DNA of 64,000 bases from Candidatus Krumholzibacteriia bacterium (GCA_041908585.1 JAYRFB010000236.1:8277-72276), one strand, 5' to 3'; counted from the stretch's first letter, positions 28,369-52,003 are shown. The notes: generated by a model from the sequence alone, not told the origin. Translations and numbers: made by a program.

Positions 28369-29565
28369 ATGGAGACACGCAGGGTCTACCAGGCCATCGT
28401 CGAGGACCATCTGGAGCAGCATCGCCAGATGATCTTCGTCTCGGGTCCCCGTCAGGTGGGCAAGACCACCATCTGCCGCGGCCGGGCCGACCTTTACCTG
28501 GACTGGGACAACGAGGACCACCGCGCCGTGGTGCTGGCGGGGCCGGGGGCCGTCGCGCGCCGCGCCGGGCTGGAGGGGCTGGTCACGCGGGCGCCGGTGA
28601 TCGCCTTCGACGAACTGCACCGCTACCGGCGCTGGCGGGGATTCCTGAAGGGATTCTTCGACACCTACGAGCAGCGCTCGCGCGTCCTGGTCACCGGCTC
28701 GTCGCGCCTGGACCAGTATCGGCGAGGCGGCGACAGCCTGATGGGACGCTACTTCCCGCTGCGCATGCATCCGTTCAGCGTGGCGGAGTTGACGTCGCCG
28801 ACCCTGCCGTCGCAACCGGTGCGCGCGCCCGCCGCGCTGGCTGACGCGGACTGGCAGGCGCTGTGGGACCACGGCGGCTTCCCCGAGCCGTTCACGCGCC
28901 GCGCCGCCACCTTCACCACGCGCTGGCGCAACCTGCGCCGCACGCAGCTGCTGCGCGAGGACGTGCGCGACCTCACGCGCATCCAGGAGCTCGACCAGCT
29001 CGACATGCTCGAGCGCCTGCTGACGGACCGCTCGGGCGAACAGCTCGTCTACAGCTCGCTGGCCCGCGAGGTGCGCGTGAGCGAGAACACGATCCGGTCG
29101 TGGGTCGGCACGCTGTGCTCGCTGCACCACGGTTTCGTGGTCCGGCCCTGGTCGAAGAGCCTGACAGGAACTCTGCGCAAGGAGCCCCGCTGGTACCTGC
29201 GCGACTGGTCCGGCGTCGCCGACCCGGGCAAGCGCTTCGAGACGCTCTGCGCCTGCCACCTGCTCAAGGCCGTCGAGGGCTGGACGGACCTGGGCCTCGG
29301 CGAGTTCGAGTTGCGCTACATCCGCGACCGCCAGGGCCGCGAGGTCGATTTCGTCGTGGTGCGCGACGGCCGACCGTGGTTCCTGGCCGAAGCGAAGCTG
29401 TCGGACACCCGGCTGACGCCGGCCCTCCGGTCGTACCACGAGAAGACGGGTGCGCCGCACGCTTTCCAGATCGTGGCCGAGCTGCCCTTCGTCGATGCCG
29501 ACGCCTTCGCGCCGACCGGGCCCGTGGTGGTCCCGGCGCGCACGCTGTTGTCCCAGTTGCTGTAA
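28369..29565 (+). CDS. AAA+ ATPase (AAA_14-like) with DUF4143-type C-terminal region carrying a PD-(D/E)xK-like motif
   Basis: Start METRRVYQ. Walker A is FVSGPRQVGKTT and Walker B-like is VIAFDELH. The C-terminus reads GREVDFVVVRDGRPWFLAEAKLSD (D...E-x-K nuclease-like pattern). It lies 11 nt upstream of the next gene. Confidence 0.85.
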   Translation: METRRVYQAIVEDHLEQHRQMIFVSGPRQVGKTTICRGRADLYLDWDNEDHRAVVLAGPGAVARRAGLEGLVTRAPVIAFDELHRYRRWRGFLKGFFDTYEQRSRVLVTGSSRLDQYRRGGDSLMGRYFPLRMHPFSVAELTSPTLPSQPVRAPAALADADWQALWDHGGFPEPFTRRAATFTTRWRNLRRTQLLREDVRDLTRIQELDQLDMLERLLTDRSGEQLVYSSLAREVRVSENTIRSWVGTLCSLHHGFVVRPWSKSLTGTLRKEPRWYLRDWSGVADPGKRFETLCACHLLKAVEGWTDLGLGEFELRYIRDRQGREVDFVVVRDGRPWFLAEAKLSDTRLTPALRSYHEKTGAPHAFQIVAELPFVDADAFAPTGPVVVPARTLLSQLL

Positions 29566-29576
29566 GGGAGAGGCCC

Positions 29577-31394
29577 ATGATCCCCCGCCTCCAGGACTTC
29601 CTCCAGGGCCAGCACCCGTTCACGCTGCTGACCGAGAGCGAGCGCGAGCGCGTCGAGGCCGCCGCCACCGCCCGCGCGTTCCCCGACGGCGCGCGCATCC
29701 TGGAACAGGACGGTCCGCAGAGCACGTGCCTGTACCTGCTGGCCGGCGGCCAGGCGCGCCTGGTGCGCGACGGCGAGGAGCTGCAGGTGCTGGAGGAGGG
29801 CGACTGCTTCGGCTACCCGTCGATGATCAGCCGCTCGGCGCCCGCCTTCGACGTGGTGGCCACGGGTGAGGTGCGGGTCCACTGCGTGCCGGAAGCGGTG
29901 TTCCGCGGCCTGCTGGGCAACCGCGACTTCGCCGAGTTCTTCCTGCAGAGCCTGGGCGAGCGCCTGCGGCGCGTGACCGCCGGCGGCGTGACCGCGCTGG
30001 GCGGCGAGCTGACCACCGAGCTGGGCGACCTCGAGCTGCGCCGCGTCGTGCGCGTGGCCCCCGGCGCCACCGTGCAGCAGGCCGCCCGCGCGATGCGCGA
30101 CGCGCGCGACGACTTCGCGCTGGTCGGCGACGACGGCGACGAGATGCCGGGCATCGTCACCGACCACGACTTCCAGGTGAAGGTGCTGGCCGAGGGGCTG
30201 GGCCCGGACACCCCGGTAGCGCGCGTGATGACGCGCCCGCTCAAGACCCTGACCGCCGACACGCCCGTGCACGGCGCGCTGCTCTACATGCTCGAGGAGC
30301 GCATCCACCACCTGCCGGTGGTGCGCGACGGCGGCATCATCGGCGTGCTGACGGCCACCGACCTGCTGCGCCACCAGACCACCAACCCGCTCTATCTCAT
30401 GCGCCGCCTGGACCACCTGGACCGCGGCGAGTCTCTGGCCGCCTACGGGCGCGACGCCGCGGCGATGGTCGAACGCCTGTTCCGCGGCGGCCTGAAGGTG
30501 GGGCAGATCGGCCGCGTCTTCGCCAGCCTGAACGACGCGCTCATCCGCCGGCTGTGCAGGCTGGCCGAGGCCGAGCTGGGCCCGCCGCCGTGTCCCTATG
30601 CGTGGCTGGTCTTCGGTTCGGAAGGGCGGATGGAGCAGGCGCTGCTGACCGACCAGGACAACGCGCTGGTCTACGGCGACGACACGGCCGCGGCGAAGGA
30701 CTACTTCGCGAAGCTGGCCGCGCTGGTCGTCGCCGACCTGGTCACCGCCGGCTTCCCGCCCTGCCCCGGCGGCTGCATGGCCACCAACTGGAACCGGCCG
30801 CTGGGCGCGTGGCTGGAGACGGTGCGCGGCTGGATCGACGAGCCGACGCCCGACAATCTCATGGTCTCGTCGATCTTCTTCGACTTCCGCGCCGTCGCCG
30901 GCGCGCTGGATGTGGCGCCGCTGGCCGACCTGGCGGCCGGCGCCGCCGGCAACCAGCTCTTCATGGCGCACCTGGCGCGCGTCTCGCTGCGCTTCAAGCC
31001 GCCGCTGGGCCTGTTCCAGCAGATCCAGGCCACCGACGACAAGGTCGACCTGAAGAAGCGCGCCATCGCGCCGGTGGTCGCGGCCGCGCGCGTCTGGGGC
31101 CTGGAGGCGGGCACGCGCGCGCGTCCGACGCGCGAGCGCCTCGAGACCGCGATCGAGGCCGGCGTGGTCAGCCGCGACCTGGGCCAGACGCTGATCGAGA
31201 CCTACCGCTTCCTGCTGCAGCTGCGGCTGCGCGAGCAGCTGGCCGCGCTCGAGCGCGGCGAAGCGCCCGGCAACGACGTCAACGTCAAGGCGCTCTCTTC
31301 GCTGCAGCGACGGCACTTGAAGGACGCGTTCGGGGCGATCCGCGAGATGCAGGGGGCCGTGGCGCAGCGGTACCGGACGAACATGCTGGGGTGA
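29577..31394 (+). CDS. cNMP-binding / CBS-pair / DUF294 putative nucleotidyltransferase signalling protein
   Basis: 605 aa with strong RBS AAGGGAGAGG. It has an N-terminal cyclic-nucleotide-binding fold (EGDCFGYPSMI), two CBS motifs, a GlnD-like NTase region (WLVFGSEGRMEQALLTDQDNALVY) and a DUF294_C-like tail. Confidence 0.9.
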   Translation: MIPRLQDFLQGQHPFTLLTESERERVEAAATARAFPDGARILEQDGPQSTCLYLLAGGQARLVRDGEELQVLEEGDCFGYPSMISRSAPAFDVVATGEVRVHCVPEAVFRGLLGNRDFAEFFLQSLGERLRRVTAGGVTALGGELTTELGDLELRRVVRVAPGATVQQAARAMRDARDDFALVGDDGDEMPGIVTDHDFQVKVLAEGLGPDTPVARVMTRPLKTLTADTPVHGALLYMLEERIHHLPVVRDGGIIGVLTATDLLRHQTTNPLYLMRRLDHLDRGESLAAYGRDAAAMVERLFRGGLKVGQIGRVFASLNDALIRRLCRLAEAELGPPPCPYAWLVFGSEGRMEQALLTDQDNALVYGDDTAAAKDYFAKLAALVVADLVTAGFPPCPGGCMATNWNRPLGAWLETVRGWIDEPTPDNLMVSSIFFDFRAVAGALDVAPLADLAAGAAGNQLFMAHLARVSLRFKPPLGLFQQIQATDDKVDLKKRAIAPVVAAARVWGLEAGTRARPTRERLETAIEAGVVSRDLGQTLIETYRFLLQLRLREQLAALERGEAPGNDVNVKALSSLQRRHLKDAFGAIREMQGAVAQRYRTNMLG

Positions 31395-31527: not shown

Positions 31528-31732
31528 ACCGCTAACCGAAAGAAAAATGGCGAGATAGATCCAATGAAGGGCGCGCGGGTCGCCGCCCCATTGAAACGAC
31601 CCTATCATGTGCGAGCTTCGGCCGCTCCGCCCCAGCGGAAGCCGGCCGTTCGAGGCCGCCTGCGGGCGCGCCTCCTCCGCGCCCGCGGTTCCCCCAGCGG
31701 TCTCGTGTCCATGTCGCGACAGGAGGCCCAAG

Positions 31733-32341
31733 ATGAGATTGACCGCCATCGTATCCTGTCTGCTGCTGCTGGTGGCCGCGCCGTGCGCGCTGGCCGTCGT
31801 CGTCGGCGGGGACTTCGACAGCCAGCCCCCCGGCCCCTATACCGGCGGCGCCACCGTGCAGCCGCCCGGCTCACCCGGCGTGCAGGTCGTGCCCGACAAC
31901 CAGGGCTACGCCGGCGCGCCGAGCCTCGGCGACGGCTCGGGCAACATGCTGCGCATCGACAACCTGAGCGGCCCGGGGCCCATCACCGTCACCTTCGTCT
32001 TCTACTGCGACGTGATCCCCGACAACCTCTGCCGCATCGGGTACACCTACGCCGCCGCGGCCTGGGACATCTACTCCGGGTTCGGCGTGTACGTGGACGA
32101 TCCCACGCTCACCAACCCCGACGACCTGTGGGAGCCGCCGGTCGGCTTCCCGCCCAGCACGGTCGGGCCGGGCGACAACCACGAGAACGCCGGCGACTGC
32201 GACGGCACGACGCACACCATCACGTTCGTCGTGGCCCCGGGCACGGTCCTGCACCTGGACAACATGGCCACCGAATGCCTGGAGAACCCGGTCGGCGACG
32301 AACAGCACAGCTGGGGTGCGTTGAAGGCGTGGTACCGGTAA
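31733..32341 (+). CDS. Secreted hypothetical protein ending in SWGALKAWYR
   Basis: Start MRLTAIVSCLLLLVAAPCALA (AGGAGG upstream). 202 aa, with no motif recognised. It is flanked by copies a and b of the 48-nt intergenic element. Confidence 0.7.
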   Translation: MRLTAIVSCLLLLVAAPCALAVVVGGDFDSQPPGPYTGGATVQPPGSPGVQVVPDNQGYAGAPSLGDGSGNMLRIDNLSGPGPITVTFVFYCDVIPDNLCRIGYTYAAAAWDIYSGFGVYVDDPTLTNPDDLWEPPVGFPPSTVGPGDNHENAGDCDGTTHTITFVVAPGTVLHLDNMATECLENPVGDEQHSWGALKAWYR

Positions 32342-32440: not shown

Positions 32441-33700
32441 CTAGAAGGCGGCCAGGAAGCGCATCTGCAGCACGCTGAAGTCGTAGTCGGGCGTCAGGTC
32501 GTCGCGGCGGCCCATGGCGGTCTCGCCGTTGTTGACCAGGCTGTAGTCCAGGTAGATGCGGATGTTGGCGTTGGCGTAGTAGTTCAGGCCCAGGGTGATG
32601 ATGTTCGCCGTGCCGCCCTCGATGTCCTTGTCGTCCAGGTCCAGCGTCGAGTAGCGGGCGGCCAGTTCCCAGGCGCCGCTCTCGGCCTTGGGAACCACGC
32701 GGCCGAACTCGGCGGTGGTGCTGTCGTACGGATGGGTGTCGTCGGTCAGGAAGTAGGTCGCGTAGACGTAGCCGCCGCCGAATCCCACGTCCTCCAGGTC
32801 GTCCAGACGCGTGACGCTGGCCATCATGTACTCGCCCTGGGCGTAGAAGCGCTTGTTGACGTAGGCCAGTTCGCCGCCCATGACGTTGTACTTGTCCACG
32901 TCCTCGATGTCGTCGGTGTCGGTGAACTTGACATCGCCGACGTAGCTCTCCGGACGCACGTCGAAGCGGACCTCGCCGCTGTCGAAGTCGGTCTTGCGCA
33001 GGGCCGCCGAGGCGCCCAGCAGCAGCACGCTCTCGTCGTTCCGGATGGGCGTGTAGTTGAAGCGCGCCGCGAAGTTGATGGTCTCGTCATCGTCCTTCTC
33101 GAAGTCCGCCACGTCGGCGCCGAACATCGAGGCGGCCAGGCGCCAGTCGGCGTCCCAGCGGGCGATCTCGATGCCCATGCGGCGCCCGACCACGAACGGA
33201 TCGGTGCCGAAGCTGCGCTCCATGAACACCAGGTTACGGCTGGTGAAGTTCTCCTCCAAGCCGAACGGCTGACGGAAGTTGCCGACGCGCACGTGGCCCA
33301 TGCCGTCGAAGAGGCCGCGGTAGGCCATGTAGATGTCCTTGACGGCGACCGTCTCCTCGGCGAAGTCGAAATCCGCCTCGGCGTACCAGTCGTTCCACAG
33401 CTCCGCCTTCAGCGCGAAGCGGGCCCGGCGCAGCAGCGTGCCGCCGGACATGTCCTGGATCTCCTCTTCCTCGTCCTGGTAGAGGGTCTTGTCCTCGTCC
33501 TCCATGTAGGTGGCCACGTCGATGTAGGCGCGGGCATCCACCCACCACTTGAAGGCGCCGTCGGTCGACTTCCAGACCAGGATCCCGTCCTCGCTGGCGG
33601 CCTTGAGATCCGTCTCACCCGCGGCGGCGACCAGCGGCATCGCCATGACGGCGAGCGCGACCACGACCAGGGTCAGCTTGGCGAACAACTTGCGCATCAC
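32441..33700 (-). CDS. Phosphate-selective porin O/P family outer-membrane protein
   Basis: 419 aa with a signal peptide. Family-typical segments are LLRRARFALKAEL, VGNFRQPFGLEE, GAWELAARYSTLDLDD and ITLGLNYYANANIRIYLDY. The C-terminal residue is Phe. Confidence 0.85.
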   Translation of the reverse strand: MMRKLFAKLTLVVVALAVMAMPLVAAAGETDLKAASEDGILVWKSTDGAFKWWVDARAYIDVATYMEDEDKTLYQDEEEEIQDMSGGTLLRRARFALKAELWNDWYAEADFDFAEETVAVKDIYMAYRGLFDGMGHVRVGNFRQPFGLEENFTSRNLVFMERSFGTDPFVVGRRMGIEIARWDADWRLAASMFGADVADFEKDDDETINFAARFNYTPIRNDESVLLLGASAALRKTDFDSGEVRFDVRPESYVGDVKFTDTDDIEDVDKYNVMGGELAYVNKRFYAQGEYMMASVTRLDDLEDVGFGGGYVYATYFLTDDTHPYDSTTAEFGRVVPKAESGAWELAARYSTLDLDDKDIEGGTANIITLGLNYYANANIRIYLDYSLVNNGETAMGRRDDLTPDYDFSVLQMRFLAAF

Positions 33701-33854
33701 GTTCTCTCCTTCGTTGACGTGCTACTCCGGGACCGCCGCGACGGCGACGAGCGGGGCCGACGCGCGCGATCCCACCGGGGACCTGTCTTTCGCTTGCTCC
33801 TCGGTCTGTCGTGGACGACAGGCGGCGCGGACGCCGCCGAGGACGTCCGTGTCT

Positions 33855-34661
33855 CTATCGTCGCGCCGCGGCGTCCAGCAGGCCGCGATTGAACACCAGG
33901 TACAGGACCGCCAGAGCGCCGCCTACCAGCAGCGGCAGCAGGCCGCGCCGCACGGGTCGCGCCTCGAGGCGGAACATCGCCGCGCCGGTCGGTCGCAGCA
34001 TCGGCGCCGCGATCTCGAACGTGCCGCTGTCGCCCCGGCGCCCGATCGTGAACGGCGGCTGCGGGTTCTTGTTCGAATCGAACGACGGCGTCGTGGCGCC
34101 GACGGACTCGACCAGCAGGCCGGGCGGCAGGACCAGAGCCAGCCGGAAATCCCCCAGCACGAACCGCGAGCTGTTGACCCACTCGCGCCGCAGCTTGTGC
34201 ACGCCGAACTGCGCGCGGCTGCCCTTCTCGTCGTACCAGCCCGGCACGACGGCGCGCAACACGATCGTGTCGCCAGGCGCCGCTCCCGGCAGCAGCTGCA
34301 GGTTCCAGTGGGGCATGCCGGCCACCGCCACCACGGGCAGCGGCAGGCTGTCGACGCCGGCGCCGAACGCCGCCGGGCCCCGCACGATCTGGTGGTCACG
34401 GCCGCCCCCGGTTTGCCAAGGCAGCAGGAGGTCCAACGAACCGCCTCGCCCGAGGACGACCGTGACCGAAACGATTGCGTCGCCGCGCGCGTCGACGACC
34501 AACTCGTCGCGGTACGCCGTCAGCGTATCAGCGGGAACGCCGACGGCCGGCGCCGCTGCCACCGCCGCCCGCGCGCCGCCCGCCAGCAGCAGCGCCACGA
34601 ACAGCGTGGTGGCCGACAGTGCGGCCAGCGCCAGCAGGATGCCCACGCGGCGCGCCCGCAT
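33855..34661 (-). CDS. Hypothetical bitopic membrane protein (N-terminal signal/anchor, C-terminal TM)
   Basis: 268 aa. The ATG overlaps the stop of the upstream permease (ATGA at 34661). The ectodomain is beta-rich. No motif recognised. Confidence 0.65.
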   Translation of the reverse strand: MRARRVGILLALAALSATTLFVALLLAGGARAAVAAAPAVGVPADTLTAYRDELVVDARGDAIVSVTVVLGRGGSLDLLLPWQTGGGRDHQIVRGPAAFGAGVDSLPLPVVAVAGMPHWNLQLLPGAAPGDTIVLRAVVPGWYDEKGSRAQFGVHKLRREWVNSSRFVLGDFRLALVLPPGLLVESVGATTPSFDSNKNPQPPFTIGRRGDSGTFEIAAPMLRPTGAAMFRLEARPVRRGLLPLLVGGALAVLYLVFNRGLLDAAARR

Positions 34662-36226
34662 CAGTTGAACCCCGGCGTCACGCCCAGCACGCGGAACCAC
34701 GTGAAGCCCGCGACGATGAGCAGCAGCGTGCCGACCGTGGTCATGATCAAACCGTACTTCAGGCTCTCGAGGACCGAGTACTGCCCGGTCGCGAACAGGA
34801 TCACGTTCGGCTTGGCGTTGATCGGCAGCGAAATGACCCAGTCGATGGTGAAGGCCGACGGCAGCGCCAGCCAGAGCGGGTCGAAGCCCAGGTTCTGCGC
34901 GATCGCGATCACGAAGGGGATAAAGATCAACGTGCGCATCGTCTTGCTGGTGAAGAACAGGTGGCTGAACATGTTCACGGCGATGACGATGCAGTAGACG
35001 ACCCAGAAGTTGACGCCGGGCCTGATGTCCATGGCCGCGAAGAGCTGTCCGACCAGCCAGCGCGCGGCCCCGGTGTCGTTCAGCGCCAGGCCGCCAGCGT
35101 AGGCGCCGCAGGAGAACAGCATCAGGTGCCACGGGATGTCGGCTTCGTTCCACTTCAGCAGGCCGAGCCGGGGCGCCAGCGCGATGATGCCGCCCAGGAA
35201 CGCCGCCATGACGGCCGAGACCTCGAAGCCGAACATCGACATGTGCAGCTTGTCGGTCACCCACAGCAGGACGACCACGCCGAAGATCGACGCGGCCTTC
35301 TTCTCGGCGCCGGTGACCGGACCCATCTCGTGCAGCTTGGCCTGCATGCGCTCGATGCCGCCCTCGACCACCGGCTGACGGTGCTCCGGCTTCACGGGGA
35401 AGACGAAACGCGGCCCGATCCACCAGCTGATCAGCGCGGCGACGAGCACCACGGGCAGCGCGGCGAAAAGCCAGTCGGTGTAGTAGACGCGCGAGCCGCC
35501 CATCGAGAGGATGAATGCCACGGCGATCAGGTTGGCGTTCGAGCCCGTCATGTAGCCGCTGGACCCGAAGTTGATGCCTTGCAGGTTCTGCAGGAACAGG
35601 TTGCGCCCGAAGTTGTTCGGTTCGCGGTTGCTGGCGCCGTAGATGCTGGCCACGACCAGCATGATCGGCAGCAGGATGGCCGCGCGCGCCGCCGTGGCCG
35701 GGATGAAGGCCGCCAGGAAGATGTTCAGCGCGAAGAACGCCAGCAGGATCCACTTCGCGCTGCGCCCGAAGCGCACGATCATGGCCAGGGCGATGCGCTT
35801 GGCGAGGTTCGTCTTGACGAGCATCGACGAGAGGATGAACGCCAGCACGTTCAGCCAGATCACGCCGTAGCCGAGGACGCCCAGCACCTGTTCCTCGGGC
35901 CAGCCGTTGCAGAAGACCAGCAGCGCCATGAGCACCAGGCTCGTGACGTAGGTGGGCATGGGCTCGGTGACCCACCAGACCAGCGCCGCCGCGAAGCAGG
36001 CGATCACGGCCTGGCCCGCCGTGGTGAGCCCGGCCGGCGTCGGCATGTAGTACAGCGCCAGGAACACGGCGACGCCGACCGGGAAGCCCAGGTAGCGCAT
36101 CCACTGCTGGCCGGCGGTGGCCTTCTTCTCCGGGATCTCGCTCAGCTTGTTGCGCGAGAGGTCCAGGAGCTCGTCGATCCCGCCGGTGGCCGTCCCGCGC
36201 GGGGCGGCGACGCTGTCGGCGCTCAT
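34661..36226 (-). CDS. DASS/SLC13-type anion permease (ArsB/NhaD superfamily)
   Basis: 521 aa and polytopic. The segment MPTPAGLTTAGQAVIACFAAALVWWVTEPMP and repeated hairpin-type segments are typical of divalent-anion:Na+ symporters. Confidence 0.8.
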   Translation of the reverse strand: MSADSVAAPRGTATGGIDELLDLSRNKLSEIPEKKATAGQQWMRYLGFPVGVAVFLALYYMPTPAGLTTAGQAVIACFAAALVWWVTEPMPTYVTSLVLMALLVFCNGWPEEQVLGVLGYGVIWLNVLAFILSSMLVKTNLAKRIALAMIVRFGRSAKWILLAFFALNIFLAAFIPATAARAAILLPIMLVVASIYGASNREPNNFGRNLFLQNLQGINFGSSGYMTGSNANLIAVAFILSMGGSRVYYTDWLFAALPVVLVAALISWWIGPRFVFPVKPEHRQPVVEGGIERMQAKLHEMGPVTGAEKKAASIFGVVVLLWVTDKLHMSMFGFEVSAVMAAFLGGIIALAPRLGLLKWNEADIPWHLMLFSCGAYAGGLALNDTGAARWLVGQLFAAMDIRPGVNFWVVYCIVIAVNMFSHLFFTSKTMRTLIFIPFVIAIAQNLGFDPLWLALPSAFTIDWVISLPINAKPNVILFATGQYSVLESLKYGLIMTTVGTLLLIVAGFTWFRVLGVTPGFN

Positions 36227-36233
36227 GCGGCTC

Positions 36234-36695
36234 CTACCACGTCGAGAACGGCCTGGCGATCAGGTTGCTGTTGAAGTAGCGCGGATCGCCCGTCACCTCG
36301 TCGCCCACCCACTCCGGCTTGTCCACCGCCTGGTCCTCGGATTGCAGCTCGCACTCGGCCACGGTCAGGCCCTGGTTCGCGCCATGAAACTCGTCGATCT
36401 CCCAGACCAGGCCGCCGTGCGGCACCTTGTAGCGCGTCTTCTCGACCAGCGGCTGCTCGCACATCGCCAGCAGTTGCCTGGCGTCGTCCAGGGGGATCTC
36501 GTACTCGAACTCGGCGCGCGTGGCGCCCACGGTCACACCCTTGATGGTCAGCGCGGCCTTGTCGCCCATGGTGCGCACGCGGACCACGCGCTCCTTGGCG
36601 GAGTTGAGGTAGCCCTGGCGGAAGAGGGTCCCCGGCGCCAGCGCCTTGTAGGCATCGCTGCGGACCAGGTACTTGCGCTCGATCTCCTTGCCCAT
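36234..36695 (-). CDS. CYTH-domain protein (inorganic triphosphatase / class IV cyclase superfamily)
   Basis: Start MGKEIERKYLV, the canonical E-x-E-x-K motif. It continues RVRTMGDKAALTIKG...EFEYEI...VEKTRY...WEIDEF...LTVAECE. 153 aa. Confidence 0.85.
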   Translation of the reverse strand: MGKEIERKYLVRSDAYKALAPGTLFRQGYLNSAKERVVRVRTMGDKAALTIKGVTVGATRAEFEYEIPLDDARQLLAMCEQPLVEKTRYKVPHGGLVWEIDEFHGANQGLTVAECELQSEDQAVDKPEWVGDEVTGDPRYFNSNLIARPFSTW

Positions 36696-36780
36696 GCCGT
36701 CTCCTGGGGTCAGGCCCGCCGGCGGCGCGCAGGCAATCGGTTCGCGGAAGCGGCAACCCGCCCGGGCGCCACCGGTCGGC

Positions 36781-36796
36781 TGCAATGGCCGTGCCC
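36781..36796 (-). promoter_or_regulatory. Sigma-54 (-24/-12) promoter for the CYTH-DASS-unknown-porin operon
   Basis: The minus strand reads gGGCACG-GCCA-TTGCA against the consensus TGGCACG-N4-TTGCW (15 of 16 positions, correct GG-N10-GC spacing). It lies about 85 nt upstream of the CYTH start codon at 36695. Confidence 0.75.
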
Positions 36797-36869
36797 CAGG
36801 CCCCCTCCGCTGCAATCGACGGGTTGACAACGGGTTCCGAATGGTCCATGGTGCGCCGGGCACGGAGGC

Positions 36870-36906
36870 GGCGAAATTTCGCCAGCGAGACCGGCGAACG
36901 GTCGCC
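36870..36906. promoter_or_regulatory. Paired palindromes GGCGA-N4-TCGCC; candidate enhancer (UAS) for the NtrC-type regulator
   Basis: GGCGAAATTTCGCC (36870..36883) and GGCGAACGGTCGCC (36893..36906) are 23 bp apart centre to centre. They lie 75-125 nt upstream of the -24/-12 element on the minus strand. Confidence 0.6.
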
Positions 36907-36962
36907 AGGTGGAAGATCGAGCGCGGGCCCGACGTCGGGCACCGCGGGGGCGGGTGACAGCC

Positions 36963-37880
36963 ATGAACAGCCGGACCAGACGATGGGCCGTCGTTGCGAT
37001 CGTGCTCGCGGTCGCCGCGGCCAGCGCAATCGTCCACGAGGGCCTGCTGGACATCCGCCGCGGGGAGGCGGCCCGCGCGCCGGCCGCGTCGCCGCCGCAC
37101 GGCGCCGGCGACGACCGCGCGGTGGTGCGTATCGGCGTCGTCTCACGCTTCGCGCCCAACCTCATCTACGCGGGCTACCAGCCGCTCATCGACTACCTCA
37201 ACGCCCATGGCCGGCGGCGCTACGAACTGCGCCCCAGCCGCGACTACCGCGACGCCGTGGAGCGGCTGCGGCGCGGCGAAGTGGCCGCTTCCTTCCTCGG
37301 CGCCTGGATCCTGCGCAGCCTCGGCCCCGCCAGTGGGCTGGAGCCGCTGCTGGGCCCGCTGAACCCGGACGGACGCAGCCGCTTTCACGATGTGCTGATC
37401 GTGCCGCGAGGTTCGGACATCCGCGGCGTCGTCGACCTGGCCGGGCGGCGCGTGGCGCTGCCCTCGGCCGATTCCTGGGCCGGCAACTGGCTGCAGACGA
37501 CCGCCCTGCCCGCGGCGGGCCTGGACGTCGCCGACCTCGATACGATCCGGCACTTCGACCACCACCAGACCGTGGTCTGGCGGGTGCTGCACGGCGAGTT
37601 CGACGCCGGCGTGGTCAAGGAGTCCGTGGCCGCGCGCTACGGAGCGGAGGGACTGCGCGTGGCGGCGCGGTCCGAGCCCATCCCCGGCCCGCCTCTGGTG
37701 GTCCGCGCGGGCGATCGCGATCCCGCGCTGGCGGAAATCCGTGCGCTGCTGCTGGCGCTGAGGCCCGATGATGCGACCGACGCCGAGGTCCTGGCCGGCT
37801 GGACTCTGGAGTTCGCCGGCGGCTTCGGCCCGGTCCACTGGGGGGACTTCGCGGCCACGCCGCCGGAGGCCCGGCCGTGA
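36963..37880 (+). CDS. PhnD-like (phosphate/phosphonate-type) periplasmic substrate-binding domain protein
   Basis: Start MNSRTRRWAVVAIVLAVAAA (anchor). VVRIGVVSRFAPNLIYAGYQPLIDYL...GEVAASFLG...DLAGRRVALPS matches the PhnD/SBP_bac_3-like pattern. Its stop overlaps the kinase start. Confidence 0.75.
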   Translation: MNSRTRRWAVVAIVLAVAAASAIVHEGLLDIRRGEAARAPAASPPHGAGDDRAVVRIGVVSRFAPNLIYAGYQPLIDYLNAHGRRRYELRPSRDYRDAVERLRRGEVAASFLGAWILRSLGPASGLEPLLGPLNPDGRSRFHDVLIVPRGSDIRGVVDLAGRRVALPSADSWAGNWLQTTALPAAGLDVADLDTIRHFDHHQTVVWRVLHGEFDAGVVKESVAARYGAEGLRVAARSEPIPGPPLVVRAGDRDPALAEIRALLLALRPDDATDAEVLAGWTLEFAGGFGPVHWGDFAATPPEARP

Positions 37881-39367
37881 CCCCCCAAGCCCCCGCGCCG
37901 GCCAGCCTGCGCACGCGAATCATGGTCACGGTCGGCGCCATCGTGGTGCTGATCACGATGCTCCTGTCGTGGGGCCTGCTCTACAGCTGGCGCGAGACGC
38001 TGGTCGCGCGCGAGGAGAGCCATGCCGTCGCGGTCAGCCGCGCCTTCTCGGTGGCGGTGATCGACGCCATGGTCTTCGCCGAGATGGACCTGCACCGCTC
38101 CGAGGGTTTCCTCGACAACTACGTCACGCTGTTCATGGCGATGGATCCCCGCCTGCGGTCGCTCACGATCCTTGATCCCGGCGGGCGCATCGTCGCCCGC
38201 AGCTGGGAGCGCGCGGAAGCGCCCTGGGTCTCGGGCGACCGCGACGCGCTCATCGCGACGACCGCGCCCCGCACGCTGATCGCCGAGCAGGACGACGGCC
38301 ACTGGGTCCTGGAAACCGTGCTGCCGATGACCACCGGCGGCCGCCGCTGGGGCACGCTGGTGCTGGGGCTGGAGGCCGATTCCATCCGTGCTTCCATCAA
38401 CCGCAGCTTCGTGCTGCTGGCGCTGCTGACTGCGGCCGTCGCCTCGATCATGCTGCTGCTGCTGTGGCTGATGCTCGGCCGGTTGCTGGGTTCGCTGCGT
38501 TCCCTGGTGCACGCCATGGACGCGGTGGCCGCCGACGGCGCCGCGGCGCCGGCGCTGCCGCCGCGCGCGGACGAGATCGGCGTCCTCTACCGCCACTTCG
38601 ATCACATGCAGAAGCGGCTGGAGGAGTCGCAGCGCGAACTGATCGGCGCCCAGGAACAGGTGTGGCACGCCGAGCGGCTGGCGGCCGTCGGCCGGCTGGC
38701 CTCGGGCATCGCCCACGAGATCAACAACCCCGTCAACGGCATCCGCAACTGCGTGTACGCCATCCGCAACGACCTGGACAACCGCGAGCAGACCCGCGAG
38801 TACTTGGCGATGATGGACGAGGGCCTGTCGCACGTGGCGGACGTCGTGCAGAAACTGTTGGACTTCGCGCGCAAGCAGCAGCCCGGGCGGCAGCCCATGC
38901 GCATCAACGACGCCGTCGGCGCCGTGGCGCGCCTGGTTTCGTTCGATCTCGAGCGCAAGGGCGCGCGGCTGGACCTTGAGCTGGCGCCGGCGCTGCCGCC
39001 GGTGCAGGCCGACCCGCAGCTGATCCGCGAGGTCTGCATGAACCTGCTGCTGAACGCGGTGGACGCGGTCGAGGCCGGCGGGCGGATCCGCGTGGCAACG
39101 CGCGCGGCGGGTCCGGCGCAGGTGGTCCTGGAGGTCGCGGACGACGGCCGGGGCATCCCGGCCGACATGCTCGGGCGCATCTTCGATCCCTTCTTCACCA
39201 CCAAGCGCACCGGCGAGGGCACCGGTCTGGGCCTGTCCATCTGCCTTGGCATTGTGCAGGCGCACGGCGGCTCCATCCGCGTGGCCAGCGAACCCGGCCA
39301 CGGCGCCACCTTCACCATCCTGCTGCCGGTCGACAACGCCGGTGACGAGGCGGGGAGCGAGACATGA
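37877..39367 (+). CDS. Sensor histidine kinase (two TM, periplasmic domain, HAMP-like, HisKA, HATPase_c)
   Basis: 496 aa. The H-box is [12 protein letters not shown], the N-box is NLLLNAVDA, and the G-boxes are DDGRGIP and [10 protein letters not shown]. Confidence 0.9.
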
Positions 39368-40704
39368 GGATTCTGCTGGTCGAGGACGAGCGCATGACGC
39401 GCGTGGCGCTGACCGGGACGCTGCGCAAGGCCGGCTACGAGGTCACGCCCTGCGCCGACGGCGACGCCGGGCTGGCGGCGCTCAACGCCGGAGCGTTCGA
39501 CATCGTGCTGACGGACCTGAGCCTGCCGGGCGCCGACGGACTGGCCATCCTGGCACGCGCGAAGCAGACCAGCCCCGACACCAAGGTGGTGATCATGACC
39601 GCCTACGCGTCGACGGAGACGGCGGTGGCGGCGCTGCGCCAGGGCGCCTATGACTACCTGACCAAGCCGTTCCAGCCGGAGGACCTGCTCAACCGCGTCG
39701 GCCACCTGGCGCGGCTGCGCACGGTCGAACTGGAGAACCGCGCGCTGAAGCGACACCTGACCGGACTGGCCGAGCGGCCGATCATCGGCGGTTCGCGCGC
39801 CATGGAACAGGTGCGACGCACGATCGAGACCATCGCCCCGGGCGACCACACGGTGCTGATCCTGGGCGCCAGCGGCACCGGCAAGGAACTGGCCGCGCGC
39901 GCGATCCACGACCGCTCCGCGCGGGCCGCAGGCCCGTTCGTGGCCATCAACTGCGCTGCCATCCCCGAGACGCTACTGGAGAGCGAGCTGTTCGGCCACC
40001 GCCGCGGCGCCTTCACCGGCGCCGAACGCGACCACGCCGGCTACTTCGCGCGCGCGCAGGGCGGGACGCTGTTCATCGACGACATCGACGACCTGCCGCT
40101 GGGCATCCAGGTCAAGCTGCTGCGCGTGATCCAGGAGCGCGAGATCGAGCCGGTGGGCGCCGGGCGGTCCGTGACGATCGATATCCGTCTGATCACCGCC
40201 ACGAAGGCGGATCTGGCGCGGCTTGTTGCCGAGCGTCGCTTCCGCGAGGACCTCTACTACCGCCTGAACGTGATCCCGCTGCGGCTGCCCGAGCTGCGCG
40301 AGCGCCGGGAGGACATCCCGGCGCTGGTGGAGCATTTCGTGGGCCGGCGCGGCCGTGTCGACGACCTCCTGCTGGACCGGGAGCGCTTCGCCGTGCTGAT
40401 GGCCCACGACTGGCCGGGCAACGTGCGCGAACTGGAGAACGTGGTCGAGCGCATGCTGGCGCTGCCCGGCATTCCGGTGCACGAGCTGTTCGACGCCCCC
40501 CTGCGGCGGCCCGCCGGCGCTCCCGTCGGCGCCACCCTGGACGGCGGCGTCGAATTGCCCAGCTACGTGACGTACATGCAGGATTGCGAGGACCGGCTCC
40601 TGCGGGACGTGATGGTCCGCTCGGGCGGCAACATCTCGGCCGCGGCGAAGCTGCTGGGGCTCCCGCGCTCGACGCTGCGCAGCAAGCTGGAGAAGCGCGG
40701 CTGA
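39364..40704 (+). CDS. Sigma-54-dependent response regulator, NtrC family
   Basis: 446 aa with a receiver domain (VLTDLSLPGADG). The AAA+ domain has GASGTGKE and the sigma-54 contact loop GAFTGA. A C-terminal Fis-type HTH is present (AAAKLLGLPRSTLRSKL). Confidence 0.95.
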   Translation: MRILLVEDERMTRVALTGTLRKAGYEVTPCADGDAGLAALNAGAFDIVLTDLSLPGADGLAILARAKQTSPDTKVVIMTAYASTETAVAALRQGAYDYLTKPFQPEDLLNRVGHLARLRTVELENRALKRHLTGLAERPIIGGSRAMEQVRRTIETIAPGDHTVLILGASGTGKELAARAIHDRSARAAGPFVAINCAAIPETLLESELFGHRRGAFTGAERDHAGYFARAQGGTLFIDDIDDLPLGIQVKLLRVIQEREIEPVGAGRSVTIDIRLITATKADLARLVAERRFREDLYYRLNVIPLRLPELRERREDIPALVEHFVGRRGRVDDLLLDRERFAVLMAHDWPGNVRELENVVERMLALPGIPVHELFDAPLRRPAGAPVGATLDGGVELPSYVTYMQDCEDRLLRDVMVRSGGNISAAAKLLGLPRSTLRSKLEKRG

Positions 40705-40742
40705 GCGCCGGGGCGCGGCCGGATCCGGCGGATCGGCTATGA

Positions 40743-40760
40743 TATAAGTCGGGGCTTATA
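40743..40760. promoter_or_regulatory. AT-rich inverted repeat TATAAG-N6-CTTATA between the regulator gene and the CYTH-like/SulP genes
   Basis: Read directly. It sits in a local AT-rich patch (40735..40790) of an otherwise GC-rich spacer. Function unknown. Confidence 0.3.
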
Positions 40761-40893
40761 GATATGACTGAAACGATTGATTGGACGTTCTGCCTGGGGC
40801 GCCGATATCGTGGCGGGGTGCGCCAGAATCGCCTACGCGCACACGCCGCCCTTTACATGACCGGACCCGCCCGCAACCGCAAGGAGCCCGCTG

Positions 40894-41532
40894 ATGAACG
40901 ACGTCTTCGCGAAGAACCGCGCCACGTCGGCTGACGAGGCCGCGAAGATCACGCCGCGCGCCGAGTTCCGCGTCTTCGGCCAAGGGGTCATCGAGACGGT
41001 TCGCGCGCACATGTACAACGGCAAGACGGTGCTTTACCAGGCGCGCCGCATGCCGGTGGAGACCTATTTCCTCTCGGTCAACACCGACGAGGCGAACGTG
41101 AAGGTCCGCGACGGCCTGCTGGACATCAAGACGAAGGTGGGCGAGACGCCCGATGGCTACGAGATCTTCCAGCCGCGCGGCAAGTTCCAGTTCCCGGTGC
41201 CGGCGGCCGAACTGGCGAAGATCCTCGGACACCTGAAGGTGGCGATGACGCTGGACCGCGAGATGTACGAGATCGACGCCTTCATCGCGCTGGCGCGCCG
41301 CCACCCCGAGATGCGCGTGGTGTCGGTTGAGAAGATGCGCTACGGCTTCACCGTCGACGGCATCATCTGCGAGTATGCGCAGGTGTGGTTCAACGGCGCC
41401 CTGCTGGAGACGGCCTGCGCCGAGAGCGAGAACTACGCGGGCATGAAGGACGTCATCGAAGGCCTGGGCATCGCCGCCATGCCGAACACGAACTACCTGC
41501 GCGCTGCGAAGCACGTCGTCGGACTTTACTGA
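40894..41532 (+). CDS. Hypothetical protein with degenerate CYTH-like topology
   Basis: 212 aa. By eye it aligns to CYTH strands: AEFRVFG vs EIERKF, VKVRDGLLDIKTKV, and VEKMRYGFTVDGIICEYAQVWFNGALLETACAES vs VEKTRY...ELD...EVE. The acidic/lysine catalytic residues are largely replaced. Confidence 0.6.
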   Translation: MNDVFAKNRATSADEAAKITPRAEFRVFGQGVIETVRAHMYNGKTVLYQARRMPVETYFLSVNTDEANVKVRDGLLDIKTKVGETPDGYEIFQPRGKFQFPVPAAELAKILGHLKVAMTLDREMYEIDAFIALARRHPEMRVVSVEKMRYGFTVDGIICEYAQVWFNGALLETACAESENYAGMKDVIEGLGIAAMPNTNYLRAAKHVVGLY

Positions 41533-41541
41533 GCGGTCGGC

Positions 41542-43788
41542 GTGGTCGCGACGCACCACCAGGACAAACGGCCCGTCGCGCGGGCGAGCGCGGCGGGCCG
41601 ACGACTGCCGGCCCGCGGTGACGCGTGGGGCGGTCTGGCGGCGATGCTCGTCGCGCTGCCCGCCGCCATCGCCTTCGGCGTGTCGGTCTACACGGTGCTG
41701 GGGCCGGGCTTTGCCGGCCACGGCGCGCTGGCGGGCCTGGTCGGCGTCGCGCTGATGGGCATGGTCGCAGCCTGGCTCGGGGGCACCGAGCGACTGGTCA
41801 GCGCGCCGTGCGCGCCGGCGGCCGCCGTGCTCTCGGCGTTCGCGGCCCAGATGCTGCGCGATGGAGCAGAGCCGCGCGCGATCATCCTCTGCCTGCTCCT
41901 GGTCGGCGCGCTGGGCGGGCTGATCCAGGTCGTGTTCGGGCTGGTCGGCCTCGGGCGTCTCATCCGTTACATCCCCTATCCCGTGGTCAGCGGCTACCTG
42001 ACCGGCGTGGGGCTGATCATCATCGGCGCGCAGATCCCGGCGCTGCTGGGCGCGCCGGCCGACCTGGGCTGGCAACAGGCGCTGGCTGCGCCCGGAGCCT
42101 GGGACGCGCGCGCGCTGGTGGTCGCCGCCGCGACCATCGCCGGCGCCTGGCTGGGGCCGCGCCTGACGCGGCAGGTGCCGGGCACGGTGTTCGGCATCGC
42201 CGCGGGCATCGGCAGCTACTTCCTGCTGGCCCTCGGCGACGGCGCGCTGCTGACCCTGGCGGACAACCCGCTGCTGGTTGGGCCGCTGCAGGCCAGGGCC
42301 GCCGGCCTCCCGGTGCCCGAACCTGCGCAGTGGCGGGCGCTGGCGGCGCTGGACGGCGCGCAGGTGGCGGCCGTCCTGGGCAACGCGGTCATCCTGGCGG
42401 CGCTGCTCTCCATCGACACCCTGAAGACCTGCGTGGTGCTGGACAAGCTGACGCGCAGCCGCCACGACCCCGACCGCGAACTGCGCGGCCAGGGCGCGGC
42501 CAACCTGGCGACCGCGGCCTGCGGGGGCCTGGCCGGCGCCGGCACCATGGGCGCGACGCTGGTGGCCCTCAACAGCGGCGCCGCGACGCGGCGCGCCGGC
42601 CTGCTGGCGGGCGCATTCGCGCTGGTGGCGGCGGTGGCCGTGGGCTCGCTCATCGGCTGGATCCCGGTGGCCGCGCTGGCGGCGATCCTGGTGACGATCG
42701 GTGTGCGCATGATCGACCGCGAGGCGCTCGGCTATGCGCGCGCGCGGGCCACGTTCCTCGATTTCTGCGTCGTTCTGACGGTGGTGGCCGTGGCCATCGG
42801 CGTCGGGCTGATCATGGCGTCGGCGGTGGGCGTGGGCCTGGCGATGATCCTGTTCGTGCGCGAGCAGAGCGGCGGCTCGCCGGTGCGCCACAAGCTGGAA
42901 CTGGACCGCACGTCGTCGACCTGGCACCGGCCGACGCGGGAAGTCGAGTACCTTGCCACGCGCGCGCCCGACTGCGTGGTGTTCGAGCTGCAGGGCGCCC
43001 TGTTCTTCGGCAACACCTACCGCCTGTACAATGACCTGGCGCGCGAGGCGGTCGCGCGGCGCTTCGTCATCATCGACTTCCGGCGCGTGCCGTCCATCGA
43101 CGTGACGGCGATCGAGATACTCCTGCAGGTCCGCGCCGCCATCCGCGAGCGCGGCGCCACGCTGGTGCTCTGCGGCACCAGCGGTCGCTCGGGGCGCGCG
43201 CGCACGCTGTCGTACCTGGTCGAGCGGCTGGCCGCGGACCGGAACGGCGACGGCACGGTCGTGGTCCTGCCGGACCTGGACGGCGCCGTTGCGTGGGTGG
43301 AGAACCGCATCCTGGCCGACGCGGAAGTCGGCGCCGACGCCCACGCGCCGATTCCCGTCCACGATCTGGAGCTGTTCGCGGGCTATCGCGACGACACGCT
43401 GGCCGACCTGGAGCAGCTTCTTGAGATCCGCGCCTTCGCTGCCGGCAGCACGATCTATGAGCGCGGGTCCGACGGGGCGGAACTGTTCTGGGTGCGGCGC
43501 GGCGCGGTGAGCCTGCTGGCGACCGTCGGCGCGAAGCCCGAACGCCAGGTGGCCGGGTTCGGCCGCGGCGATTTCTTCGGCGCGCGGTCGTTCCTGGACC
43601 GCAAGCAGCGCCCGAGCCGCGCCGTGGCGATGGTCGACACCGAGGTCTACGTGCTGACGCGGACGGCCTTCGAGGAAATCGCGCGCTCGCACCGCACGCT
43701 GGCCCTGAACCTCGCCTGGGCGATGGCGCGCGCGCTGGCCTCGCGCATGCGCCGCGCGGAAGAGCGCCTCGCCGCGCTCAGCGAGTAG
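41542..43788 (+). CDS. SulP-family anion transporter with STAS and C-terminal cyclic-nucleotide-binding domain
   Basis: 748 aa. The SulP N-terminus is GGLAAMLVALPAAIAFGVS. It is polytopic. The STAS region reads CVVFELQGALFFGN and VIIDFRRVPSIDVTA. The cNMP fold reads GFGRGDFFGARSFL. Confidence 0.85.
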   Translation: MVATHHQDKRPVARASAAGRRLPARGDAWGGLAAMLVALPAAIAFGVSVYTVLGPGFAGHGALAGLVGVALMGMVAAWLGGTERLVSAPCAPAAAVLSAFAAQMLRDGAEPRAIILCLLLVGALGGLIQVVFGLVGLGRLIRYIPYPVVSGYLTGVGLIIIGAQIPALLGAPADLGWQQALAAPGAWDARALVVAAATIAGAWLGPRLTRQVPGTVFGIAAGIGSYFLLALGDGALLTLADNPLLVGPLQARAAGLPVPEPAQWRALAALDGAQVAAVLGNAVILAALLSIDTLKTCVVLDKLTRSRHDPDRELRGQGAANLATAACGGLAGAGTMGATLVALNSGAATRRAGLLAGAFALVAAVAVGSLIGWIPVAALAAILVTIGVRMIDREALGYARARATFLDFCVVLTVVAVAIGVGLIMASAVGVGLAMILFVREQSGGSPVRHKLELDRTSSTWHRPTREVEYLATRAPDCVVFELQGALFFGNTYRLYNDLAREAVARRFVIIDFRRVPSIDVTAIEILLQVRAAIRERGATLVLCGTSGRSGRARTLSYLVERLAADRNGDGTVVVLPDLDGAVAWVENRILADAEVGADAHAPIPVHDLELFAGYRDDTLADLEQLLEIRAFAAGSTIYERGSDGAELFWVRRGAVSLLATVGAKPERQVAGFGRGDFFGARSFLDRKQRPSRAVAMVDTEVYVLTRTAFEEIARSHRTLALNLAWAMARALASRMRRAEERLAALSE

Positions 43789-43810: not shown

Positions 43811-44719
43811 TCAGGCCTCCGCCGGCTGCGGCCAGGCTCCTGCCGCCAGCTCCATGAACGCCGCGCACGCCGGGGACGGTGTCCGTCCGCGCGGCCAGCA
43901 GAGCGCGATCCGCCGCTCCAGGTCCAGCCCCGCCACGCGCACCGCGCGCAGCCGGCCATCGTCCAGCTCGCGCTGCACCGCGAAGCGCGAGACCACCGAG
44001 ATGCCCAGTCCCGCCTCCACCGCGCGCTTGACCGCGCCCACGTTGCCCAGTTCGAGGACCGACTCCAGGCGTATGCCCTCGGCCGAAAGCTGCTCGATGA
44101 GGCTGCGCGAACTGGCCGAGTCCAGGCGCGGCAGCAGGAACGGCAGCCGCGCCAGGCTGGCCGCCGGCACGCTGGGCAGCTCGGCCAGCACATGTCCGCG
44201 CGGGACGATCACCAGCAGCTCGTCGCGGCGCACCGGCCGCCGCTCCAGGCGCGGGTCATCGCCCAGCGCCCCCTCGCCGACCAGGCCCACGTCCAGTTCA
44301 CCGTCGGCCACCATCTCGCCGATGCGCCGCGCCGGCTCCACGCGCACCGCCAACTCGACGCCCGGGTGGTCGCGCCGGAACGCAGCCAGCAGCCCCGGCA
44401 GGATGTAGACGCCCACGACCTGGCTGGCCCCGATGCGCAGCATCCCCGTCTGGGCGCCGGCCAGGTCGCGCAGCTCCTGCGTGAGCGAGTCCACCCGGGC
44501 CAGGATCTCGTCGGTCGCCGCCAGCAGCGCCTCGCCCGACGGCGTCAGCGCGACGCGCCGGCCCAGGCGGTCGAAGAAGCGCGCCCCGAGCGTGCGCTCG
44601 AGCGTCGCGATCTGCGCGCTGACCGCCGGCTGCGTCAGGTTCAGCTCGAGCGCCGCGCGCGAGAAGCTGCGCAGGCGGGCCACCGCCTGGAACGTGCGCA
44701 GCTGGGCCATGGTGAGCAT
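43811..44719 (-). CDS. LysR-family transcriptional regulator
   Basis: 302 aa. The N-terminal wHTH is LRTFQAVARLRSFSRAALELNLTQPAVSAQIATLE. Confidence 0.9.
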   Translation of the reverse strand: MLTMAQLRTFQAVARLRSFSRAALELNLTQPAVSAQIATLERTLGARFFDRLGRRVALTPSGEALLAATDEILARVDSLTQELRDLAGAQTGMLRIGASQVVGVYILPGLLAAFRRDHPGVELAVRVEPARRIGEMVADGELDVGLVGEGALGDDPRLERRPVRRDELLVIVPRGHVLAELPSVPAASLARLPFLLPRLDSASSRSLIEQLSAEGIRLESVLELGNVGAVKRAVEAGLGISVVSRFAVQRELDDGRLRAVRVAGLDLERRIALCWPRGRTPSPACAAFMELAAGAWPQPAEA

Positions 44720-51579: not shown

Positions 51580-51582
51580 CGC

Positions 51583-51972: not shown

Positions 51973-52003
51973 GGGGTTACCTCCAAGACTGGTCTATTGC
52001 CAA

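Follow-up and report, generated by a model that had tools for sequence, protein, structure and literature searches.

A conserved gene cluster joining triphosphate-tunnel-fold proteins to anion carriers: a candidate module for condensed-phosphate uptake

NeuTTM (NE1496) of Nitrosomonas europaea is a characterised inorganic tripolyphosphatase, and the yeast proteins Pho87, Pho90 and Pho91 are orthophosphate carriers of the DASS family. Wastewater, sediments, detergents and fertilisers are rich in condensed phosphates such as pyrophosphate, tripolyphosphate and polyphosphate; to our knowledge, a bacterial route dedicated to bringing them through the outer membrane and on into the cytoplasm has yet to be described. 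Here we analyse a 64,000-nucleotide (nt) stretch of DNA from a Candidatus Krumholzibacteriia bacterium (GCA_041908585.1, JAYRFB010000236.1:8277-72276; hereafter the window), in which CYTH-type or CYTH-like proteins are twice encoded next to anion transporters. We see about an even chance that this locus represents a conserved, substrate-induced module that acquires and hydrolyses condensed phosphate (tripolyphosphate or short-chain polyphosphate, possibly pyrophosphate). The module is apparently horizontally mobile, and its most conserved component is a soluble protein of 212 amino acids (aa), here called P212. Literature on CYTH proteins or triphosphate tunnel metalloenzymes (TTMs) together with DASS, SulP, symporters, operons or tripolyphosphate uptake, covered largely outside subscription journals, gave no description of the cluster, which is apparently undescribed; its components come from known superfamilies.

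P212 (40894-41532, plus strand) belongs to a protein family that has no curated model. Its sequence matched nothing in Pfam, NCBIfam or the PDB, and 46 diverse members of the family matched no Pfam family, with no hit to the CYTH model PF01928 at E<=1. There are 1,872 homologues, the best 120 of which are 77-95% identical, and in one-genome-per-species data P212 is encoded by 184 species. In the 80 of these species loci that were kept, it is 72-86% identical and spans at least seven phyla, the carriers being Beta- and Gammaproteobacteria, Gemmatimonadota, Acidobacteriota, Spirochaetota, Chloroflexota, Desulfovibrio and Krumholzibacteria-like metagenome-assembled genomes (MAGs). Many of the carriers are MAGs from wastewater treatment plants; Desulfovibrio falkowii (L081) is one that can be cultivated. 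P212 is more conserved than the adjacent CYTH and DASS proteins in 42 of 42 paired loci, the median identities to the window being 76, 61 and 53%, respectively. The earlier note on this DNA had called the 212-aa protein degenerate; in fact, no other gene of the locus and its relatives is as well conserved. When 1.84 billion cluster representatives were searched with a profile, 893 more divergent ones were added, most of those listed being ~190-215 aa long, and R22, E24, R26, Y58, K70, K79, K147 and E160 are invariant across them.

The relation of P212 to CYTH proteins is carried by its predicted structure, since the Pfam, hhalign and PDB phmmer comparisons were negative. An AlphaFold (AF2) model from a diverse alignment has a predicted local distance difference test score (pLDDT) of 95.6, a predicted TM-score (pTM) of 0.90 and nine predicted strands; it supersedes an earlier model from a shallow alignment (pLDDT 74). 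In a Foldseek search of the PDB, the top ~35 matches to the model are all TTM/CYTH proteins (probability 1.0, E=3e-6 to 1e-4). They include thiamine triphosphatase (ThTPase), YgiF, AtTTM1, AtTTM3 and SaTTM, as well as class IV adenylate cyclases (3n0z, 2fjt) and the putative cyclases 2gfg and 3sy3. Because the TM-scores are just 0.42-0.50, P212 is best regarded as a probable, divergent member of the eight-stranded TTM tunnel fold. Its invariant charged residues alternate along the predicted strands, as tunnel-lining residues would. Strand 1 reads R22-A-E24-F-R26, an RxExR motif that is invariant in the family and stands in place of ExExK, leaving P212 without one of the two metal-binding Glu residues of that motif. 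At the level of the fold, therefore, the expectation that the 212-aa protein is CYTH-like was borne out, and with the model behind the second of them, both pairings of a CYTH-type protein with a transporter are real.

Gene neighbourhoods were screened by searching the six-frame open reading frames (ORFs) of the 80 P212-seeded loci with targeted phmmer, using proteins of the window and of related loci; the screen thus covers fixed query families and is not exhaustive. De novo clustering of all neighbouring ORFs was dropped, because in DNA of such high GC content antisense ORFs swamped the result. P212 is flanked by at least 8 kb on either side in 40 species loci; among these, a transporter gene (DASS, SulP, TctABC or DUF4010) lies within 1 kb of P212 in 37, and a CYTH or a DHH-DHHA2 (yeast-PPX1-like) enzyme is encoded in 38. 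A pyrophosphatase-family gene is found in 32 of the 40, a porin (O/P or Porin_4 type) and the ~608-aa protein U608 in 26 each, and the bitopic membrane protein of the window or a U240 protein in 24; the U240 proteins are weakly similar to the bitopic protein and are encoded 3′ of DASS in Acidobacteriota and Betaproteobacteria. The same set of genes surrounds P212 homologues in 80 species-level genomes, and the association, whose occurrence beyond this genome had been in question, far exceeds chance.

The order of the genes varies between lineages. Betaproteobacteria have either LysR (minus strand), CYTH, DASS, U240, P212, SulP, U608 and a secreted pyrophosphatase, or P212, SulP, LysR (minus strand), porin, U608, pyrophosphatase, CYTH and DASS. 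The order in Gemmatimonadota is PhnD, histidine kinase, NtrC, porin, CYTH, DASS, P212 and SulP; in Chloroflexota and Desulfovibrio it is LysR (minus strand), CYTH, P212 and DASS (U608, pyrophosphatase), and in Spirochaetota LysR, DHH-DHHA2, P212, TctC, TctB and TctA. Holophagae have U608, pyrophosphatase, histidine phosphatase, a PLC/P1-like protein, porin, a P212 paralogue, CYTH, DASS, U240, DUF4010, P212 and DUF4010, the two DUF4010 membrane protein genes (locus L031, 8627-9910 and 10727-12058) flanking P212 and replacing SulP. SulP lies directly 3′ of P212 in proteobacterial and Gemmatimonadota loci, and the closest relative of the window, locus L001, has the same cluster minus SulP. P212 thus partners four unrelated carrier families, so that its role is more likely to be bound up with the substrate than to be that of a dedicated carrier subunit.

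As a control for ascertainment bias, a search was also seeded with CYTH, giving 24 metagenome loci with enough flank. A P212-family gene is adjacent in 14 of these, and a DASS or Tct transporter lies within 3 kb in 7. By these counts, CYTH is linked most tightly to the P212 family; its link to DASS is frequent, not universal. A divergent P212 paralogue of ~190-220 aa is encoded at 5090-5749 of L031 and in many of the CYTH-seeded metagenome loci (L087-L160), where it very often lies immediately upstream of a NeuTTM-like CYTH gene, even with no transporter nearby. This arrangement suggests that the P212-type and CYTH tunnel-fold proteins act as a pair.

The CYTH gene of the window (36234-36695, minus strand; 153 aa) is the first gene of the minus-strand operon. 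Its product matches PF01928 with 63.7 bits (E=2e-17; gathering cut-off 23.2), and its best PDB sequence matches are the structures of N. europaea NE1496 (2fbl/3typ, E=1e-16). The alignment shows the ExExK motif to be invariant, together with every basic or acidic residue that the protein has in common with NeuTTM (E4, E6, K8, R39, R41, K52, K86, R88, E114, E116 and E120). Judged by its sequence, the protein is a cytosolic, NeuTTM-like TTM that may share the catalytic activity of NeuTTM. The idea that NeuTTM itself adjoins a DASS gene was rejected; in Nitrosomonas and Ruegeria (L163, L164), NeuTTM and its orthologues close a conserved operon of CHAD, a ParA/MinD-like ATPase and CYTH, which suggests a role for NeuTTM associated with polyphosphate granules. 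This CYTH type is therefore independently tied to polyphosphate, though not to transport.

Further enzymes in the related clusters point in the same direction. The family I pyrophosphatase-like protein has a signal peptide in the copy examined (L002), and the best solved relative of the spirochaete DHH-DHHA2 protein is the yeast exopolyphosphatase PPX1 (E=3.6e-20, full-length alignment). Holophagae encode a signal-peptide histidine phosphatase and a PLC/P1-nuclease-like protein. The recurring cluster enzymes that could be identified are all phosphoanhydride or phosphoester hydrolases. U608 (15411-17237 in L002, where it carries a signal peptide) has homologues in 33 of the 80 loci; it has no relative in Pfam or the PDB, is sometimes split into two genes and always adjoins the secreted pyrophosphatase-like gene. 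Its N-terminal half holds motifs that look CYTH-like by eye (REYKFL, KEYFDT, GYLIRIT, TVKS and KTEAEEN). A periplasmic CYTH-like domain in this half is no more than a lead, as hhalign against CYTH and P212 and a profile search of the PDB were both negative.

All nine genes that the earlier note had assigned to the locus are present, with the same coordinates and families (Pfam, NCBIfam). In the minus-strand operon, CYTH is followed after a gap of 7 nt, rather than 8, by the gene for a DASS/SLC13-type anion symporter (TC 2.A.47; 34661-36226; 521 aa). This protein matches PF00939 (Na_sulph_symp) over residues 50-516 with 220 bits (E=9e-65) and TIGR00785 with 197.6 bits, one bit under the cut-off of 198.6. 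Its hairpin motifs are TGSNANL and INAKPNV. Among the cluster DASS orthologues (48 plus the window), the hairpin-tip motifs are TGS[SAN]ANL and I[SN][GA]KPNV, unlike SNT-type tips; the Lys of the second motif (xxKPNV) is found in 35 motif matches from the 48 cluster sequences and could be related to a more highly charged substrate. The DASS gene ends in a 1-nt overlap (TGATG, rather than the ATGA described before) with the gene for the bitopic membrane protein (33855-34661, minus strand; 268 aa; G+C at third codon positions, GC3, 0.91). The latter has an N-terminal signal or anchor, a periplasmic domain of ~200 aa and a C-terminal transmembrane helix; it matches no Pfam or NCBIfam family and has eleven close homologues, of which the sole named one is from Krumholzibacteria. 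The last gene of the operon, 154 nt further on, encodes a Porin_O_P channel (32441-33700, minus strand; 419 aa; PF07396, E=1e-55, 189.9 bits). Its similarity to OprP (2o4v) is weak (E=5.6e-12), so the OprO/OprP selectivity residues 62 and 114 cannot be mapped onto it.

On the plus strand, the sensor operon opens with a gene for a PhnD-like periplasmic binding protein (36909-37880, probable start ATG at 36963; 323 aa; PF12974, Phosphonate-bd, E=1e-43), which is far under the PhnD equivalog cut-offs of NCBIfam. It is followed by a membrane sensor histidine kinase (37877-39367; 496 aa) with weak dCache, HAMP, HisKA and HATPase matches and the H-box HEINNP (His280). The third gene encodes an NtrC-type sigma-54 enhancer-binding response regulator (39364-40704; 446 aa; receiver, Sigma54_activat and HTH_8) with GAFTGA at 215-220 and the Walker A sequence GASGTGKE. 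The overlapping stop and start codons described for this operon are there (GTGA between the binding protein and the kinase, ATGA between the kinase and the regulator); it is the remaining spacing details that differ, trivially. One of these is the gap of 9 nt, rather than 10, between P212 and the SulP-STAS-cNMP_binding transporter gene (41542-43788, plus strand; 748 aa; PF00916, PF01740, PF00027). Convergent with SulP lies a gene for a LysR-family regulator (43811-44719, minus strand; PF00126, PF03466), beyond the range of the earlier note, which also overlooked the sigma-54 promoter described below and the fact that both pairings belong to one conserved regulon.

The CYTH start codon is preceded, at a distance of ~85 nt, by a sigma-54 (-24/-12) promoter, GGGCACGGCCATTGCA (36781-36796, minus strand). 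Just one other sequence in the 64 kb matches TGGCAC-N5-TTGCW with a single mismatch, and the promoter sits in the divergent intergenic region in the correct orientation for the CYTH operon; wherever an NtrC-type regulator is encoded (nine further loci), an equivalent box stands ahead of the structural operons. The locus hence contains the elements of an NtrC-type two-component system: a kinase, a regulator with receiver, AAA+ domain with GAFTGA and helix-turn-helix domain, and a nearby -24/-12 promoter. A second, candidate LysR operator/promoter element (40743-40786, plus strand) lies 118 nt upstream of P212 and consists of an AT-rich inverted repeat at 40743-40760, TATAAG-N6-CTTATA, and, 3′ of it, ATTGATTGGAC (40776-40786). 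This 11-mer has 13 exact copies in the ~2 Mb of fetched loci, where ~1 is expected, all of them in coding-strand orientation. In the window, its close relative and several Betaproteobacteria, the 11-mer precedes P212; in Betaproteobacteria, copies also stand ahead of the porin-U608-pyrophosphatase and CYTH-DASS operons. The order P212, SulP and LysR (minus strand) is repeated in L002, L004, L005, L006, L015 and L074, and L001 has an orthologue of the window LysR (403 bits). The shared element, together with LysR in the betaproteobacterial order, indicates that both pairings of CYTH-type protein and transporter form one regulon, which in the window would fall into two circuits, one run by the sigma-54 two-component system and the other by LysR. 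A scan of the locus for sigma-70 promoters and terminators gave nothing exceeding chance.

Uptake of condensed phosphate is the most economical reading of hydrolase partners, polyanion carriers of four families, a phosphate/pyrophosphate-type porin and a PhnD-like sensor. From this combination we infer a substrate, a direction of transport, the catalysis by CYTH and P212, and a pairing of regulators with promoters, as follows. The polyanion would cross the outer membrane through the porin O/P-type channel and be detected in the periplasm by the PhnD-like protein, which would signal through the histidine kinase. The phosphorylated NtrC-type regulator would then activate the promoter at 36781-36796 and thereby expression of CYTH, DASS, the bitopic protein and the porin. 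DASS would carry the anion into the cytoplasm, probably aided by the translationally coupled bitopic protein, and the NeuTTM-like CYTH would cleave triphosphate to pyrophosphate and phosphate. The P212-SulP unit would be driven from the conserved LysR-type operator by the adjacent LysR, with SulP acting as a second anion carrier. P212 might bind or cleave a condensed-phosphate species, alongside CYTH or, in lineages that lack CYTH, alongside the PPX1-like exopolyphosphatase. The earlier suggestion that the first operon imports and hydrolyses short-chain polyphosphate is strengthened, not proven, by the retention of the NeuTTM residues, by the pyrophosphatases and PPX1-like enzyme and by the association across genomes.

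Several observations weigh against this interpretation. CYTH stands alone, with none of the query families nearby, in 10 of the 24 CYTH-seeded loci, and the genes examined around it in five of these are unrelated. The 64 kb of the window yielded neither U608 nor the secreted pyrophosphatase, though most relatives have them. The best-known substrates of the DASS, SulP and TctABC families are carboxylates, sulfate and bicarbonate, and the window DASS is distant from the solved dicarboxylate, citrate and sulfate transporters of its family (best E=1e-25). The nearest model to the window LysR is the selenium-metabolism-associated LysR, below its cut-off, and the window locus revealed no regulator of the PhoB type, Pho boxes not having been searched for. 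The hhalign alignment of P212 with the cluster CYTH has a probability of 0.2%, which is not significant. Given this lack of a significant CYTH profile match and RxExR in place of ExExK, P212 may not be a hydrolase.

The best surviving alternative, in itself unlikely, is general phosphate scavenging, in which periplasmic hydrolases free orthophosphate from a variety of esters and anhydrides, DASS and SulP import orthophosphate only, and CYTH and P212 are phosphate-status sensors or housekeeping enzymes that do not process what is imported. The signal-peptide pyrophosphatase, histidine phosphatase and PLC/P1-like proteins of related clusters would suit such a scheme, as would the porin O/P and the precedent of the yeast DASS-family carriers named above. 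However, the window and spirochaete versions have no periplasmic hydrolase and still place a cytosolic CYTH or PPX1-like enzyme beside the transporter, and it is the cytosolic TTM-fold proteins whose genes are most conserved and most tightly linked. The lack of an identified PhoB-type regulator in the locus counts against scavenging as well.

Uptake of an anion other than a phosphorus compound (sulfate, selenate, thiosulfate, di- or tricarboxylate), with the TTM-fold proteins signalling or coupling energy, strikes us as improbable. The names of the families would suggest it (sodium:sulfate symporter for DASS, sulfate permease for SulP, tricarboxylate for TctABC), and so would the selenium-metabolism model nearest to LysR and a weak match of the binding protein to a putative selenate binding-protein model, below cut-off; yet no such NCBIfam match reaches its cut-off. 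No recurrent sulfur, selenium or carboxylate enzyme was recovered in the 80 loci with the fixed query families; by contrast, 80-95% of loci have pyrophosphatase, exopolyphosphatase-like and CYTH genes.

Very improbable, in our view, is homeostasis in the export direction, with the TTM proteins mobilising internal polyphosphate and the carriers releasing phosphate or pyrophosphate. Pho91 in yeast vacuoles and the release of phosphate by polyphosphate-accumulating organisms offer analogues, and the frequency of wastewater-treatment-plant MAGs among the carriers and the linkage of NeuTTM orthologues to CHAD granule proteins would be in keeping with them. A ppx-CHAD-ppk1 operon does lie 15 kb away, as the earlier note had it (ppx 15321-16871, CHAD 16816-17760, ppk1 ending at 19916). 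It deserves little weight: there is none within 10 kb of the cluster in L001, the sole neighbourhood annotated for it. Moreover, a periplasmic binding-protein sensor, TctC, an outer-membrane porin and periplasmic hydrolases imply a substrate that is external.

The domain architecture of SulP bears on a further proposal. Its C-terminal PF00027 domain (E=6e-16) is CRP/CNB-like, and the canonical phosphate-binding cassette (FGE...PR[ST]A) is replaced by FFGARSFLDRKQRPSRAVA in the window. The orthologues read FFGGLAFLDxxxRPNDAVA, missing the canonical Glu and the PR[ST]A motif, and this non-canonical cassette is conserved in 15 aligned sequences, that of the window included. The least probable reading of all, which the earlier note had proposed, is that SulP is gated through this domain by the product of P212, CYTH or both, acting as a nucleotide cyclase of class IV type or as a nucleotide sensor: class IV adenylate cyclases (3n0z, 2fjt) are among the structural matches of P212, and a further cNMP-CBS-DUF294 gene lies upstream (28863-31394), but the idea is weakened by the conserved non-canonical cassette and by P212 being equally linked to DASS, TctABC and DUF4010 proteins, all of which have no such domain, and P212 lacks an ExExK metal-binding Glu. 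NeuTTM-type enzymes are not known to have cyclase activity.

Returning to the uptake of condensed phosphate, a bolder version of it can be put forward tentatively, as a possibility that we hold with distinctly less confidence. P212 would found a new TTM family that performs chemistry new to the fold, and would be the cytosolic component that a mobile regulon for external condensed phosphate, shared across phyla, cannot do without. Candidate reactions are the cutting of polyphosphate to triphosphate units for the CYTH or PPX1-like partner, the opening of cyclic metaphosphate, and the transfer of phosphate from triphosphate to a nucleotide, which would conserve the anhydride energy.

The surroundings of the locus are ~70% G+C across the window, and the nearest relatives of its lineage-specific genes are in Krumholzibacteria-like MAGs. 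A divergent pair of genes lies immediately before the locus; one encodes an RNase_T/DEDD exonuclease-domain protein (26716-28170, minus strand) and the other the cNMP_binding-CBS-DUF294 nucleotidyltransferase (28863-31394, plus strand), which carries a second cyclic-nucleotide-type sensor domain. Three large secreted proteins (5662-8619, 21364-23673 and 24159-26630; subtilase-PKD, 5′-nucleotidase C-domain and beta-propeller proteins) each have a FlgD_ig or Por_Secre_tail sorting domain at the C terminus, a hint of type IX secretion in an FCB-group-like organism. ORFs at 47044-48807 (minus strand), 11603-13708 (plus strand) and 31607-32341 (plus strand) encode 587, 701 and 244 aa; their coding signal is strong (GC3 0.83-0.94), yet they match no Pfam family, and the last of them abuts the 3′ end of the porin gene. 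A P-type ATPase (E1-E2; 49396-51993, minus strand), preceded by a cupredoxin-like protein, is probably part of a copper-handling pair.

The cluster offers a concrete candidate route for the uptake of condensed phosphate, and the constraint on the P212 family across phyla is of a level that usually marks a function worth knowing. If confirmed, the module would extend the microbial phosphorus cycle by one step and the triphosphate tunnel fold by a new activity, and its genes could serve as metagenome markers for the use of polyphosphate.

How far the parts resemble described systems can be set out protein by protein. The Porin_O_P channel is encoded with phosphate-related genes, as are OprO and OprP, the pyrophosphate- and phosphate-selective porins of Pseudomonas. 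Unlike these and the Pho regulon, the channel of the window is associated with a sigma-54 two-component system and LysR, not a PhoB-type regulator, and is paired with secondary carriers, not with PstSCAB. The eukaryotic SPX-DASS carriers (Pho87/90/91) and VTC, which combines SPX with a TTM polyphosphate polymerase, likewise use DASS-type carriers and TTM-fold domains in handling phosphate and polyphosphate. In contrast to them, the cluster has neither SPX nor the VTC membrane domain, its proteins are separate soluble polypeptides and nothing indicates polymerase activity. In spirochaete clusters, an enzyme resembling yeast PPX1 and family II (DHH-DHHA2) pyrophosphatases takes the position of CYTH; as it does not occur in the window, it informs the function of the module only. 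The window CYTH resembles NeuTTM in size (153 versus 151 aa), in ExExK and in the shared charged residues, whereas it is only 38% identical, bears a conserved C-terminal tail (DPRYFNSNL...W) and adjoins a transporter gene, unlike the NeuTTM orthologues of the CHAD-ParA-CYTH operons. P212, finally, has the same predicted fold as the canonical CYTH/TTM proteins (ThTPase, YgiF, AtTTM3, SaTTM and class IV adenylate cyclase); it differs from them in RxExR, in its 212 aa and in extra helices and, unlike its cluster neighbours CYTH and DASS, is extremely conserved across phyla.

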